A stretch of 21,551 nucleotides of DNA from Nanobdellota archaeon. Its GTDB lineage: Archaea > Nanobdellota > Nanobdellia > Nanobdellales > Nanobdellaceae. This document shows, piece after piece, positions 2,644-8,983 of this stretch; position 1 is the first letter of the stretch; each line of letters begins with the position of its first letter. A program made the translations under genes and the position numbers. Under the pieces are notes generated by a model that ran no database searches, was not told the origin of the DNA, and saw nothing but the letters and a program-made list of their open reading frames with translations. The stretch is from NCBI GenBank assembly GCA_020697515.1, contig JAIXNB010000045.1, positions 1 to 21,551 of the forward strand, written 5' to 3'.

Positions 2644-2705
2644 TATTTTAAAACATCTGTTTTTATTTAAAAACCATATGGAAAAAATTAGAATTTATTC
2701 ACTAT

Positions 2706-2748
2706 TTACAACTGAAAACTTCTCTCTTCAAGACGGAGAGGAGGTCAG
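2706..2748. repeat. 43-nt element, copy 1: conserved arms TTACAACTGAAA and AGAGGAGGTCAG around a 19-nt hairpin-forming core
   Basis: Both 12-nt arms match copy 2 (7047-7089) exactly, and the spacer length is the same (19 nt). The core CTTCTCTC-TTCAAGACG-GAGAGGAG can form an 8-bp stem, including one G-U pair. Confidence 0.6.
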
Positions 2749-2989
2749 AAAAATTGAGAATAAGGAGTGTATATGACATCTACGAGATAAGGAAAATACC
2801 AACAGGAGAATCTCTAGGAAGTACCAATATTAACAGACAGAAATAAAAGAGAGAGTATATAAGATATTTATGCGACTATTTCATTATTAGAGGGTTAATT
2901 ATAAATAATAAATCCAGGCGAGTGATCTTTAAAGATGCTTGGAGTCGTTCGTGTAGAAGAATTAAAAATCAAAATAAATAACTTAAAAC

Positions 2990-3652
2990 ATGTATTTGAA
3001 TATGAAAAGCTTACAAGATTTTATTAAATATTTAAGAACTTTAGGAATTTCAAACAATGTTATAGAAGCCTTTAAAGTTATAAAGAGAGAATGGTTTGTT
3101 CCAGAGGAATATAAGAATTTTGCATATAATGATGAAGTAATTCCTATAAAAGAAGGAGTTACAATATCTCAACCAAGTGTTCTCGCAACTATGATAGATG
3201 CTTTGGAAATTAAACCAGGGTTAAAAATTTTGGAAATAGGAACTGGATCTGGTTTTTCTACAGCAATATTATCTTACTTAGTCGGGCCAAATGGTAGGGT
3301 CATATCTGTAGAAATGGATGAAGATGCTTATTCATTTGCTAAAGAAAGACTAAATTATTTAATAAACAAAAAAATTATCCCTAATAATATAAAGCTTATT
3401 TTAGGGGATGGTTCTTTAGGATATTCTCAAGAAGCTCCGTATGATAGGGTAATCTCGCATGCAAGCTGTACTAGAGTCCCAAATCCATGGATATGGCAAC
3501 TAAAGGATAATGGAGTAATAGTAGCGCCAATAGGACCGGTATGGGATCAAAAATTAGCCAAGATTAAAAAAGTGAGTGGAAAGTTAGAAAAAGAAATACT
3601 AATGGACGTTTTATTCGTGCCATTAAGAGGAAAATTTGGAGATATTGAGTGA
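2990..3652 (+). CDS. pcm: Protein-L-isoaspartate O-methyltransferase
   Basis: 220-aa ORF with WFVPEEYKNFAYNDEVIPI, TISQPSVLATMIDAL, SAM motif I LEIGTGSGFSTAIL and GDGSLGYSQEAPYDRV. The start may instead be the Met at 3002. Confidence 0.85.
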   Translation: MYLNMKSLQDFIKYLRTLGISNNVIEAFKVIKREWFVPEEYKNFAYNDEVIPIKEGVTISQPSVLATMIDALEIKPGLKILEIGTGSGFSTAILSYLVGPNGRVISVEMDEDAYSFAKERLNYLINKKIIPNNIKLILGDGSLGYSQEAPYDRVISHASCTRVPNPWIWQLKDNGVIVAPIGPVWDQKLAKIKKVSGKLEKEILMDVLFVPLRGKFGDIE

Positions 3653-3803: not shown

Positions 3804-5174
3804 TCAACCAGTATCTAAATTTTTATTTCTCTCTATCTTAAATCTCTTAAGTGGGTATGAAATAGGATTTTTTATTAATTTACAAATTTCATCCGGGTTA
3901 CATACACCCATATCCTTGTAATACCCTGCATTAGAACAGTTAGGAGGTAGATATCTGAGTCCCTTACCATATTTTTCTTTGTGCCACTGCAATTGATATT
4001 CTATGTATCTTTCCCTTAAAGGATTCGGATTTTTATCGTTCCACTTCCATAACAATGCTTCTATTTCTTTCCAAGACCATTCAAGGTTTATTAAAAAGTT
4101 AATTAGAATAAATAGCGCTCTTTTTCTACCATCTTCAATACCATTCAAAATGTTTTTGATGCATGGCGGAAAATATTTCTCTGGAACTTTTCCTTTAAAT
4201 TTTATCTTAGTCCTTTGCAAATCTTTGGCTACTTCTTCCTCTACTGAGATTTTTAGCTGAGTAGCGCGAATTCTCTCTTTTTCTATTTTATTCACTGCCT
4301 CCCACTTAATAGCAGTATAAATTAGCTTTTCTAATCTAGGTTCTTGATCTACTTCTTCTGTAAGAAATGGTATGCCTTCATAGACATAGTAATCTATATC
4401 TGCTATTTCTGGATTGAATGTATCTGTGTCTTTGGGATCTATTGGAATAGATATTCTACCAGTTTTCTCATTAATGGAGTAAGGCATTCTGAATAAATGC
4501 CTGGATGATATGAGTATAGTATCTATTTCAATTAGATGAAAAGGTGATAGCTGCTCAGGTAGTATATTTAAATTATATTCATTTATTATTTCATTAATGT
4601 CCCAATTTCTTTCTATAAATTTCTTTAGATCCTCTTCTATTTTATAAGCAATATATGATGCTAATGTTCTGGCTAATTCCGGAAATAAGTTTTTAGTGTC
4701 CTCTTTTATAAGTTCATCTCCTTTAGGTACTGTTACTTCTTTTGGGAACAATTCCCATGGAACTGCAATATGGAATCCTTTACCCCCAGAGTACTTTATG
4801 TAAATAGGATGGATTTCTTTACCTGTTAAGAGATCTATAATAAGTTTTGCAGTATAACGAGCTATATTAAAGTTTTTTGAGTCTAGATCTATAATAAGAT
4901 CCCAACCTAGCCTTAATTCATTTAGCTGTGTTTTTTTGAGCTTTGTACTAAGTTCTAGTGGATTTAACCAACGTTCAACAGACATATGAAAAGAAACCGC
5001 CCCTTTTTTTATTAGTTCAAAAATATCTCCTTCATTCTCTAAAATATAAGGTCTTTTGCCAAAAGTACCATCTTCAAACATGTATCCAATTTCTCTATTT
5101 TGAGCAACTTTTATCATATCTCCAAGAACTTCTGGATTTCTCTTATAAAAACTAATTAACTTTGTTTTTAGCAT
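3804..5174 (-). CDS. DNA primase, fused catalytic (PriS) and PriL C-terminal Fe-S domains
   Basis: 456-aa ORF. PriS motifs are WDLIIDLDSK (DxD), YSGGKGFHIAV and SSRHLFRMPYSINEKTG. The C-terminal ~120 aa has FPPCIKNIL plus Cys413/425/431 (PPNC..., GVCNPDEIC), which matches the PriL-CTD 4Fe-4S ligand pattern. Confidence 0.8.
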   Translation of the reverse strand: MLKTKLISFYKRNPEVLGDMIKVAQNREIGYMFEDGTFGKRPYILENEGDIFELIKKGAVSFHMSVERWLNPLELSTKLKKTQLNELRLGWDLIIDLDSKNFNIARYTAKLIIDLLTGKEIHPIYIKYSGGKGFHIAVPWELFPKEVTVPKGDELIKEDTKNLFPELARTLASYIAYKIEEDLKKFIERNWDINEIINEYNLNILPEQLSPFHLIEIDTILISSRHLFRMPYSINEKTGRISIPIDPKDTDTFNPEIADIDYYVYEGIPFLTEEVDQEPRLEKLIYTAIKWEAVNKIEKERIRATQLKISVEEEVAKDLQRTKIKFKGKVPEKYFPPCIKNILNGIEDGRKRALFILINFLINLEWSWKEIEALLWKWNDKNPNPLRERYIEYQLQWHKEKYGKGLRYLPPNCSNAGYYKDMGVCNPDEICKLIKNPISYPLKRFKIERNKNLDTG

Positions 5175-6903: not shown

Positions 6904-7056
6904 TTGTTGGATTATCTGGAGAAGGTGGAGGTGAGGATTGGTAAAATAATCTCTGTAGAAGACCATCCAAATGCAGACAAACTGTATGTTTTAAAAGTAG
7001 ATTTAGGAAATGAAGTTAGAATAATAGTTGCCGGTTTAAAACAGTATTACAACTGA
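6904..7056 (+). pseudogene. Truncated tRNA-binding (Trbp111/CsaA/EMAP-type OB-fold) domain gene, N-terminal half only
   Basis: 50 codons from TTG: LLDYLEKVEVRIGKIISVEDHPNADKLYVLKVDLGNEVRIIVAGLKQYYN*. This matches the first half of Trbp111-like proteins (V.LRVGKI..VE.HPNADKLYVLKVDLG.E.R.IV.GI..YY). There is no ATG. A GAGG lies 6 nt upstream of the TTG. The ORF stops where the 43-nt element begins, and no downstream frame continues the domain. Confidence 0.55.
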
Positions 7057-7089
7057 AAGCCTCGCCCTTTAGGGCGAAGAGGAGGTCAG
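7047..7089. repeat. 43-nt element, copy 2: the same 12-nt arms around a different 19-nt hairpin core
   Basis: TTACAACTGAAA-gcctcgccctttagggcga-AGAGGAGGTCAG. The core forms TCGCCC-TTTA-GGGCGA. The element covers the stop codons of both convergent genes, the Trbp remnant (+) and gatD (-), and is followed by TTTTTCTTTT. Confidence 0.6.
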
Positions 7090-8396
7090 TAATATTTTTC
7101 TTTTAGCCCGGAGTTTATAAATTCCTCTTCCAAGCTTCTTGGTTTTATTTCTCCGGCTAGTGGTGTTAACATTAGATTTTTCACCTCCTCATAGTTTTCT
7201 GTATGACCTAAAACCCACATTAATTTAACGTATGCGACTTCTGGTAACATATCTTCGCAGTGAATTACTCCTAAATTATACAATCTTCTAGCATTGGAAT
7301 ATACAAAAGAATTTGTTCTTCCAAATATAGTTTGAGATGTCATACAAACAATAATTCCTTCCTCCACTGCTCTTTCTATATGAGGGAACCACGATTTTTC
7401 TCTATGTAATGTTTCGGTTGGAGCATGACCAAAACCTGTACCTTCTATTACTATCCCCTTATAACCCTTATCTACGAAGAAATCTATTATTTCAGGATCT
7501 GATCCAGGATATACCTTTACAAGAGCTACTTTTTCATATATCTTCGTATCTAAAAGTACCTCTCCATCATTTCTTCTCCTATAGTTCTTGTTAACGATCT
7601 CTATTTTTCCGGATGGATAGATCTTCGCTAATGGTAAATCATTTATTGATTGAAAAGCATCTCTTCTTTCTGTATGCATTTTTCTGACTCTTGTCCCTCT
7701 GTGTGCATAGCAAAATTCATCAGAAATATATCCATGCATAACAACTGAAACTTCTGCAATATTAGATGTAGCATAAATAGTGGCACAAATCATATTCATA
7801 AAAGCATCAGAGGATCCTCTATCCGAAGATCTTTGGGCGCCAACCAATGCAACTGGTTTACCTAAGTCTCTTAACATAAAAGACAAAGCAGCGGACGTAT
7901 AATGCATTGTATCAGTTCCATGAGGAATTATTACTCCATCTGATCCAGAGTTCAGTTCTTTAGCAACTATTTCAGCAATTTTTACCCATTCTTTTGGGGT
8001 AATATCTTCGGAAGCAATCGAAAATGGGTTTAATATATTGTTAATCACTGCTATATCTTCTAATTCTGGTATCTCATATAAAAGTTCATATGGATCGAGG
8101 AACATATGAACACCACCTGTTCTATAATCTACCCTAGACATTATAGTACCTCCAGTCACGATTATTGACACTCCTTTTAACCCCTCTCTGTATATTGGTT
8201 TTCTCCTTGGAAATTTTGCAACTTCTACCTTTTCTTCCAATGGTATTATATCCTTTATATGATCTTTTTGAAACCCAATATTATATCCATTATTCAGTTT
8301 AAGAATAATCGTGTCTTCATTGGGAGATGGGATAAAAGTACCTTCAAAACTGCGCCCATCTCTAAGTAATAATCTGACCTTTCTCCCATACTCCAT
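7086..8396 (-). CDS. gatD: Glutamyl-tRNA(Gln) amidotransferase subunit D
   Basis: 436-aa ORF with a GatD-type N-terminal domain (VRLLLRDGRSFEGTFIP) followed by an asparaginase-like core with IIVTGGTI and PHGTDTM motifs. Confidence 0.85.
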   Translation of the reverse strand: MEYGRKVRLLLRDGRSFEGTFIPSPNEDTIILKLNNGYNIGFQKDHIKDIIPLEEKVEVAKFPRRKPIYREGLKGVSIIVTGGTIMSRVDYRTGGVHMFLDPYELLYEIPELEDIAVINNILNPFSIASEDITPKEWVKIAEIVAKELNSGSDGVIIPHGTDTMHYTSAALSFMLRDLGKPVALVGAQRSSDRGSSDAFMNMICATIYATSNIAEVSVVMHGYISDEFCYAHRGTRVRKMHTERRDAFQSINDLPLAKIYPSGKIEIVNKNYRRRNDGEVLLDTKIYEKVALVKVYPGSDPEIIDFFVDKGYKGIVIEGTGFGHAPTETLHREKSWFPHIERAVEEGIIVCMTSQTIFGRTNSFVYSNARRLYNLGVIHCEDMLPEVAYVKLMWVLGHTENYEEVKNLMLTPLAGEIKPRSLEEEFINSGLKEKYY

Positions 8397-8953
8397 AATA
8401 TTCCTGTCGATGTAAGTTTTAAATCGATTTAACTTTTAACAAGGTATGCTAAAATTAAAAATTAAAAAAAGGTGTTATGATGCGGCTAAAATAAAGTAAT
8501 TAATATAATACGTGTTTCTCATACTATATAACTAGTTTTTATCCTTACTACTCTCTCCTCAAAATTATTTAGAAAATAAACAGTAATATTCATCCACCTT
8601 GAGAAGTTCTTCCGCTCTGTCCGTACACAGACTTCATCAGGGAGTGCCCTAGATGAAGATGGTTATAGGTTAATGGAGAAAAGATAGATAGTAACAAGTT
8701 AGCAAATACTATTTAAGGTTATTACATATATATGGTATCTTGCATACACTAAGGTATAGTGGTTACATATATAATAAGCATATATAAAATTATCTGAGGA
8801 TATTAAATTATTATCGCCATACTAATTGGGGAAAAACAGTGAGGATACAAAATATCCTGGAAATTATCTGTGTTTTAGTATGGTTGGACTATAAAATTTC
8901 TGTATTTATACCAAAAACAAAAAAATTGAATAGGAAGTGATATTCTACTAATG

Positions 8954-8965
8954 TTTATAATATAA
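8954..8965 (+). promoter_or_regulatory. TATA-like box of ftsZ
   Basis: TTTATAATATAA is centred about 24 nt upstream of the ATG at 8984, consistent with a leaderless transcript. Confidence 0.4.
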
Positions 8966-8983
8966 GCAAAGCAATGTGTTTAC

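Follow-up and report, generated by a model that had tools for sequence, protein, structure and literature searches.

The two 43-nt repeats analysed here belong to an ordinary kind of element and are not a new RNA, because they are leftovers of jumping genes, each of which has inactivated and in part removed a gene of this very small symbiont genome. Each copy consists of a host-derived TTAC followed by a 39-nt element in which three parts of IS200/IS605-family insertion sequences are joined: the terminal 9 nt at the left (AACTG plus AAAG), the end hairpin with its 8-bp stem and UUYA tetraloop, and the terminal 10 nt at the right (AGGAGGTCAG). It is highly probable that the copies are collapsed, non-autonomous remnants of this family, inert relics with a solitary hairpin that mark gene loss caused by insertion sequences. 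The parent family has an IS608-like layout, carries tnpA and/or tnpB, inserts 3' of TTAC, and is widespread in hyperthermophilic archaea.

The window, i.e., the complete stretch of 21,551 nt that was analysed, has a G+C content of about 33% and contains, among others, genes for RIO kinase, protein-L-isoaspartate methyltransferase (PIMT), a fused primase, a DUF357 protein, deoxyhypusine synthase, GatD, and FtsZ. Contigs identical to it are found in hydrothermal metagenomes (ENA), and the nearest named relatives of one window protein belong to the Nanopusillaceae (Nanoarchaeota).

Two repeats with hairpin cores between identical arms

The repeats are located at positions 2706-2748 (copy 1) and 7047-7089 (copy 2), both on the plus strand and offset by 4341 nt. 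The pattern TTACAACTGAAA-N19-AGAGGAGGTCAG, identical 12-nt arms around spacers of 19 nt, was found twice in the window, and two matches were still obtained when up to three mismatches were allowed, compared to 0.00 expected from 100 shuffles. Coordinates, orientation, distance, arms and spacer lengths reported in a sequence-only reading of this DNA were all reproduced, and the relaxed search added no further copy in the window. In local alignments, similarity between the copies is confined to about 50 nt, and their flanks align with scores no higher than those of shuffled sequence.

Plus strand folding predicts a hairpin of -14.2 kcal/mol (z = -2.6) for copy 1 and of -16.0 kcal/mol (z = -2.5) for copy 2, bearing out the earlier proposal that each core folds in this way. 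The same reading had regarded the cores as unrelated, but 11 of 19 positions are identical. Relative to the family consensus with a TTCA loop, copy 1 carries six changes, all from GC to AT, and copy 2 differs by one change from the consensus with a TTTA loop. If the real ancestor is taken as reference, the chance of all six copy 1 changes landing in the hairpin is P = 0.06; the contrast between conserved arms and variable cores is therefore not significant, and decay in an AT-rich genome suffices to account for it. A helix between CTGA of the left arm and TCAG of the right arm, which had been suggested to close the structure, shows no covariation: left-arm columns 8 and 9 vary without compensation among 28 family members (see below), a set in which the right arm is fixed by the way it was collected. 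The GGAGGU noted earlier as resembling a Shine-Dalgarno sequence is indeed present, but as GGAGGT it is simply a portion of the right end of the element.

The positions of all parts are compiled in Table 1. No second hairpin end was detected near either copy with covariance model R1 (see below) or by pattern searches.

Table 1. Location of the two copies, their constituent parts, and the affected genes in the window
Feature	Position	Strand	Remarks
Copy 1, target TTAC	2706..2709	+	host-derived; counterpart of the left cleavage/target tetranucleotide in IS608-type elements
Copy 1, solo single-hairpin element, 39 nt	2710..2748	+	R1 54.8 bits, E = 3.9e-11
Copy 1, left-end linker AACTG	2710-2714	+	part of the 39-nt element
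Copy 1, guide AAAA	2715-2718	+	part of the 39-nt element; decayed (consensus AAAG)
Copy 1, hairpin CTTCTCTC-TTCA-AGACGGAG	2719-2738	+	part of the 39-nt element; decayed
Copy 1, right-end tail AGGAGGTCAG	2739-2748	+	part of the 39-nt element
Small Toprim-domain pseudogene	2678..3027	+	copy 1 inside, 60 nt lost, further frameshifts
Copy 2, target TTAC	7047..7050	+	host-derived, codons TAT TAC of the tRNA-binding gene; same CAGTATTAC in the intact L155 gene
Copy 2, solo single-hairpin element, 39 nt	7051..7089	+	R1 70.6 bits, E = 5.4e-15
Copy 2, left-end linker AACTG	7051-7055	+	part of the 39-nt element
Copy 2, guide AAAG	7056-7059	+	part of the 39-nt element
Copy 2, hairpin CCTCGCCC-TTTA-GGGCGAAG	7060-7079	+	part of the 39-nt element
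Copy 2, right-end tail AGGAGGTCAG	7080-7089	+	part of the 39-nt element
Truncated tRNA-binding-domain (PF01588) pseudogene, 50 codons	6904..7056	+	TGA inside the left arm of copy 2
GatD gene	7086..8396	-	stops at TGA (7086-7088), which matches the terminal TCA(G) of the element in reverse complement

Similarity to the 3' ends of HgcC and sot0042

No Rfam family matched the window at its gathering threshold. In a sensitive search, copy 2 aligned with the 3' end of HgcC (RF00062), which reads ...CGCCCUUUAGGGCG..GAGGAGGUCAG, with 25.3 bits (E = 2.5e-4), and copy 1 with 12.0 bits, compared to a gathering score of 50 for the model of about 130 nt; the 3' hairpin and the tail alone carry both scores. 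A near-identical copy from Desulfurococcales (L019) reached 32.5 bits. For this copy and for copy 2, the terminal UUYA-loop hairpin of HgcC followed by GAGGAGGUCAG, approximately positions 88 to 117 of the model, is aligned near-perfectly. The copy 2 hairpin was also placed on the terminal hairpin of sot0042 with 11.1 bits and an E value of 0.64, which is weak when taken alone. Originally described as unclassified, the repeats therefore find their counterparts at the 3' end of HgcC/sot0042 and at the ends of complete tnpA/tnpB elements (see below).

A hairpin with an 8-bp stem and a UUCA or UUUA loop was described as 'RE-like tetraloop' by Gomes-Filho et al. 2015 (PMC4615843) in 3'-end transcripts of IS1341-type tnpB genes, in gene-less PATE elements, and in HgcC. 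Relatives of HgcC and the sotRNAs are transcribed in other archaea, and overexpression of two of them resulted in better growth of Halobacterium (PMC4615843). The window copies share the terminal hairpin of 8 bp with UUYA loop and the single-stranded tail GAGGAGGUCAG with HgcC and the sotRNAs (sot0042, RF02656), but are devoid of about 90 nt of upstream HgcC structure, and the left-end segment AACTGAAAG replaces the preceding HgcC hairpin. We take HgcC and the sotRNAs to be right-end transcripts of tnpB elements, now termed omega or reRNA scaffolds. No such TnpB omega/reRNA module is apparent at the window copies: host gene sequence lies upstream of both, their flanks are dissimilar to each other, and the window contains no tnpB.

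Single-hairpin copies in other archaea

When one genome per species was searched with the pattern CAACTGAAA-N15-23-AGAGGAGGTCAG, 19 matches were obtained, 13 of which reside in hyperthermophilic archaea (Desulfurococcales, Sulfolobales, Pyrobaculum, Ignisphaera, and Archaeoglobi). Their consensus, TTACAACTGAAAGCCTCGCCCTTTAGGGCGGAGAGGAGGTCAG, is one base off copy 2, and their flanks and neighbouring genes are unrelated to one another. The three free bases preceding the fixed C are TTA in ten of these archaeal matches, and all 13, defined by exact arms, are single-hairpin copies and not ends of full elements.

A regular expression combining left arm, hairpin, and right tail detected 30 distinct matches of 41-46 nt in archaeal genomes and metagenomes. 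For 28 of these, ranging from 42 to 44 nt and including both window copies, an alignment was produced and base pairs were counted. In this set TTAC is imposed by the expression, GAAA and the right tail are likewise fixed by the collection, and the linker varies. Pairing in the hairpin is kept throughout, with compensatory changes at four pairs. Covariance model R1, built from the family set, recovered the two known copies in the window and no others (scores in Table 1).

Single-hairpin elements deviating by only 1-3 nt from copy 2 are present at Desulfurococcales/Sulfolobales loci (L019, L011, L021, and others), orders which include known hosts of nanoarchaea. Near-identity of these crenarchaeal copies hints at a transfer from host to symbiont, and the G+C content of one complete element, 47.5% versus 33% in the window, would be compatible with it. 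Viral contigs contained no match to the element pattern, and a viral origin was dismissed.

A further, decayed single-hairpin element, TAACCCTGAACCCTCACACCTTGTGCGGGGAGGAAGTCAG, is located at positions 436-475 of L155, upstream of GatD (R1 21.5 bits, E = 0.0056). L155 is the closest relative of the window, with 89% identity in GatD, and the corresponding site in the window is empty. To judge from the two sequences, insertions of this element family seem to be polymorphic within the lineage.

Complete elements with the same ends

Metagenomes were scanned with the hairpin top and the right tail, the left side being left free, revealing at least 120 loci. Most of these show one of several conserved, structured scaffolds upstream, a diversity to be expected if the right ends belong to different lineages of tnpB. 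At a minority of the loci, TTAC-AACTGAAAG is found, followed further upstream by unrelated sequence. At 12 loci, the right end is preceded at a distance of 203-1785 nt by a second copy of the hairpin in the same orientation. The left end of each of these complete elements reads TTAC/AACTGAAAG ahead of the hairpin, and the linker varies. Downstream of the left-end hairpin, 11 of the 12 show a TATAA-type motif, in most cases behind ATGG. The ends of the family were therefore defined from these 12 elements, which come from hot-spring metagenomes, as TTAC/AACTG-AAAG-hairpin... and ...hairpin-AGGAGG-TCAG/, the slash denoting the element boundary.

Five of the 12 elements are 1.3-1.8 kb in size and contain tnpB, accompanied in three cases by a TnpA-like ORF. 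In the L051 element, Pfam identified TnpA as Y1_Tnp (E = 2.8e-39) and TnpB as OrfB_IS605 plus Cas12f1-like_TNB; for two TnpB ORFs from long elements without a TnpA-like ORF, only Cas12f1-like_TNB was found. The remaining seven elements (L032, L050, L057, L058, L080, L102, and L103) are gene-less and 203-327 nt long. Six of them match HgcC with 33-53 bits and/or sot0042 with 31-46 bits in their right-end halves; for L103, no match to either was obtained at an E value of 0.01. The right-end side of one gene-less element of 240 nt even exceeds the HgcC gathering score (53 bits versus 50). Comparison of these sequences suggests that the HgcC 'RNA genes' may be right-end scaffolds of IS200/IS605 elements and of miniature derivatives thereof.

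Complete elements of the family with these ends were found neither in the Nanoarchaeota contigs examined nor in the window, so that the source of the window insertions can only be inferred. The window also lacks tnpA and tnpB; tblastn searches with TnpA and TnpB of the complete elements yielded nothing better than E = 0.01.

Empty sites and disrupted genes

Copy 1 is located in a 347-nt gap between a gene for a 163-aa protein and the PIMT gene, where the window holds only short ORF pieces. In two relatives, L156 and L158, an intact Toprim-domain ORF of 123 aa is present at this place (70-84% identity in the 163-aa protein). Copy 1 stands in place of 60 nt between two TTTTGC sites of the L156 gene, and its TTAC aligns with TTGC, formed by the Leu codon TTG and the C of CAA. 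Given the synonymous Leu codon TTA, the two sites would read TTTTAC. In the relatives themselves, both copy 1 junctions are TTGC or CTCC, not TTAC.

The 50-codon ORF ending in copy 2 matches the Pfam tRNA_bind domain with an E value of 1.2e-13, but only at profile positions 1-42 of 96; an exact-protein look-up of the 50-aa sequence returned no record. Between GatD and deoxyhypusine synthase of L155, L151, and L152, an intact tRNA-binding gene of 109 aa is present (76-89% identity in GatD). The L155 site reads ...CAGTATTAC/AAACCGG...(165 nt)...AAAATTTAC/TAGTATTTTTC, and the second junction is ATTTAC/. The corresponding window sequence is ...CAGTATTAC/39 nt/TAATATTTTTC. Copy 2 thus substitutes for 165 nt of the tRNA-binding gene, and both junctions are located exactly after a TTAC of L155. 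The empty site reads ...TATTAC/, and no target duplication is present. Accordingly, the first four bases of the unit originally delimited as 43 nt are host target and lie outside the element. Host DNA was lost up to a second TTAC, exactly so at copy 2 and with a deviation of one base at copy 1; the two-TTAC junction pattern is directly seen for copy 2 only.

The insertion also affected GatD, encoded on the opposite strand. Its end, ...AAA TAC TAG in L155, is ...AAA TAT TAC TGA in the window, reaching 4 nt into the element. The original TAG was destroyed, one Tyr codon was added, and the stop codon is now provided by copy 2. Copy 2 is therefore situated between two convergent frames, the 50-codon ORF and GatD, and supplies the stop codons of both.

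From the empty sites and the intact genes in relatives, it follows that both copies are lineage-specific insertions in what are now pseudogenes. The sequence-only reading had considered a small-RNA family. A conserved family of this kind is at odds with L155, L151, L152, L156, and L158, where the respective sites are free of the element and the genes are intact.

Formation of the single-hairpin copies

The arms are the cleavage-site and guide segments, and the core the hairpin, which the TnpA transposase recognises in IS200/IS605 elements. The general part of an earlier suggestion, that arms around a variable core point to a module recognised by a protein or an RNA, such as a recombination site, is correct; its extension to a small-RNA family is not.

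We infer that the copies arose by collapse between the left-end and right-end hairpins. The hairpin of about 20 nt is present at both ends as a direct repeat, so that the interior would be removed by recombination or by slippage during replication, with a single hairpin remaining. The accompanying loss of host DNA could have occurred in two ways. Two insertions at neighbouring TTACs on the same strand might have recombined, eliminating the DNA in between. Alternatively, TnpA might have cleaved the right end and the next TTAC downstream and joined the element to the flank, a reaction whose chemistry would be that of ordinary strand transfer within one molecule.

With neither tnpA nor tnpB in the window and with a single hairpin per copy, the elements are most likely fossils unable to move. 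What effects they still have are incidental: they provide the stop codons of the truncated ORF and of GatD and may place a hairpin between convergent genes.

Relation to known elements

IS608 uses TTAC as target, has a guide 5' of the hairpin foot, and is cleaved at its right end 10 nt 3' of the foot (PMC3201880). Several properties of IS608 recur here: insertion occurs 3' of TTAC, which precedes both copies and all 12 complete elements, and without target duplication, as seen from the empty site in L155; AAAG is positioned at the foot of the window hairpin, where the left guide of IS608 sits; an imperfect palindrome forms a hairpin near the end; and the right end closes with TCAN at 10 nt past the hairpin foot, TCAG here and TCAA in IS608. 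The window copies differ from IS608-type elements in being only 39 nt long, in having one hairpin instead of two and no tnpA, tnpB, or internal sequence, and in the loss of adjacent host DNA at both sites. In addition, the distance from TTAC to the hairpin foot is 9 nt in contrast to 19 nt in IS608.

PATEs are likewise non-autonomous and retain only the end sequences of IS200/IS605 elements, and the seven gene-less elements of 203-327 nt, which share the ends described here, are of this type. PATEs, however, possess both hairpins and at least about 200 nt including the right-end RNA scaffold, whereas the window copies have a single hairpin with the outer 9 and 10 nt. Bacterial REP elements, which are associated with RAYT (TnpA-REP) transposases, are also short single palindromes with conserved flanking bases and a relation to IS200/IS605 ends. 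They occur in tens to hundreds of copies together with a dedicated domesticated transposase, in contrast to one or two copies per contig in the present case, and no transposase associated with the single-hairpin copies was seen. As far as their formation is concerned, solo LTRs offer an analogy, a single terminal repeat remaining after recombination between direct repeats; here, the repeat is only the hairpin of about 20 nt, and the product is a hybrid with the outer flank of each end.

Alternative explanations

IS200/IS605 ends, PATEs, and HgcC/sotRNAs are already known kinds of sequences. It is rather unlikely that the single-hairpin unit constitutes an undescribed archaeal class, be it mobilised in trans like REPs or generated as the end product of a TnpA-mediated deletion of adjacent DNA up to the next TTAC. 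In its specific form, an active minimal non-autonomous transposon of 39 nt, a counterpart of REPs inserted 3' of TTAC by TnpA acting in trans and encoded at another place in the genome or by the host cell, the idea is less probable still. The 28 aligned members, coming from many genomes, have a uniform length and precise boundaries, and some contigs harbor more than one copy, two in the window and two, one of them decayed, in L140; a third, decayed copy is present elsewhere in the close relative L155. The cis elements required by IS608 at one or the other end (TTAC, AAAG, hairpin, and terminal TCAG) are all kept, and as every one of the 13 exact-arm matches in archaeal genomes has a single hairpin, this form could spread alone. 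Uniformity is no proof of mobility, however, because collapse of any complete element would lead to the same product. The known mechanism requires two hairpins bound to a TnpA dimer and a right-end guide, which is absent here (PMC3201880), the host DNA missing at both window copies is not what a simple insertion would lead one to expect, and the window lacks tnpA.

Even when considered as insertions, the copies might have been recruited as functional RNA or DNA signals. A hairpin between convergent genes could serve as bidirectional terminator or as insulator, a ribosome-binding site could be sequestered, or a small RNA with a regulatory role could be made; the small-RNA and processing-site ideas of the sequence-only reading fall under this explanation. 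The plus strand folds, which are better than those of shuffled sequence (z about -2.5), the exact placement of copy 2 between convergent ORFs, both of which it terminates, and the transcription and growth effects of HgcC/sotRNA relatives (PMC4615843) would all be in line with such a role. It is nevertheless very improbable. Relatives with 84-91% protein identity manage with element-free sites and intact genes, the copy 1 hairpin is decaying through changes from GC to AT, the distance between GGAGGT and start codons is not fixed across family members, and the upstream HgcC scaffold of about 90 nt is missing, as reflected by the scores of 25.3 and 12.0 bits against the gathering score of 50.

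The idea that the copies join the halves of a split gene, one at 6904-7056 and the other behind copy 1, by RNA trans-splicing or DNA recombination has practically nothing left to recommend it. It was raised by the tRNA-binding ORF stopping inside copy 2 and by the frame following copy 1 (...SEKLRIRSVYDIYEIRKIPTGES...), which faintly resembles the missing half and whose fusion yields a Pfam score of 55.3 bits compared to 51.4 bits without it. This frame actually belongs to the central part of the Toprim pseudogene (...QELRIKNVYAVYEIRRIPTKK... in L156), the frames do not join across the element boundaries, the folds lack bulge-helix-bulge geometry, and relatives have an undivided tRNA-binding gene where copy 2 is located. 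The Toprim identity of the frame together with the site comparisons in L155 and L156 refutes a split gene as well as trans-splicing of mRNA.

Several other candidates were discarded. In the predicted folds, the bulges of copy 2 are located 5' of the central helix and copy 1 has no second bulge, excluding a bulge-helix-bulge motif, in which two 3-nt bulges on opposite strands would each be positioned 3' of a central helix of 4 bp. A C/D box sRNA with CUGA as D box was rejected, as no C box was seen within range on either strand and Rfam was empty at the gathering threshold, and so was a tRNA or tRNA half, ARAGORN finding none and T-arm or D-arm features not being seen. The exclusion of C/D, H/ACA, bulge-helix-bulge, tRNA-half, and CRISPR patterns in the sequence-only reading is upheld. 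A hairpin for UGA recoding or readthrough does not agree with the lack of a long in-frame ORF upstream of copy 1 and with the variable core length in the family. Replication-origin boxes, integron attC sites, riboswitches, and small ribozymes do not fit in their motifs, and the gene context varies; these readings were dropped when the link to HgcC and insertion sequences emerged. Finally, the repeats do not border an integrated element, for the 4.3 kb between them contain housekeeping genes (PIMT, fused primase, DUF357, and deoxyhypusine synthase) and the flanks are unrelated.

Implications

Collapsed remnants of IS200/IS605-family elements are thus the preferred explanation for the two copies. 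What may be new, to a modest extent, is the single-hairpin form as a hybrid of left and right end, and the record of gene erosion in a nanoarchaeal genome. Neither this hybrid form nor nanoarchaeal gene erosion by such elements was found described in a limited search of the literature, and searches with sequence strings of the element returned only irrelevant matches. The formerly unclassified element is now annotated, and two unannotated pseudogenes, one with a tRNA-binding domain and one with a small Toprim domain, are flagged. Insertion sequence activity is documented in a Nanopusillaceae-like genome, each event comprising insertion at TTAC and a loss of 60-165 nt of host DNA. The first sequenced nanoarchaeon has been reported to lack such insertion elements. 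If deletion of adjacent DNA by TnpA were the correct explanation, the element family would actively contribute to gene loss in Nanoarchaeota, whose genomes are reduced, and would probably have been acquired from crenarchaeal hosts, which carry near-identical copies. As a practical rule for annotation, TTAC plus AACTGAAAG plus a hairpin plus AGGAGGTCAG marks collapsed transposon ends and not RNA genes, and the same applies to HgcC matches below threshold.

Further observations

Additional features were recognised in the window. A single ORF of 456 aa at 3804-5174 combines the small- and large-subunit primase domains (PF01896 and PF04104), a fusion known as a feature of Nanoarchaeum. Between GatD and FtsZ, a gene-free gap of 587 nt (8397-8983) is present, at which the cumulative GC skew of the window turns. 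In the relatives L150, L151, and L153, this gap contains an ORF of 90-105 aa, of which the window has a weak N-terminal remnant on the minus strand (8635-8748, E = 7e-6). Since only this remnant is left, the gap probably harbors a third pseudogene. Rfam searches of 8397-8983 gave no match; around 8583-8645 on the minus strand, CUGAUGAAG...GGAUGAAUAUUACUGU bears a faint resemblance to C/D-box RNAs.

An interruption of a tRNA-binding gene was also noticed in an unrelated archaeal bin (GCA_964362065.1, L004 3478-3570). The gene follows that for MetRS. Behind ...IVAGLRN, its frame is broken by a stretch of about 90 nt, CAAAAACACGATGTGCC...GGCACTCGTGTTTTGG, which is highly self-complementary and contains inner hairpins, and resumes at YNKDQLKGK.... 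The interruption is three codons away from the insertion point in the window and, judged by its sequence, might represent either a miniature insertion or a short intron.
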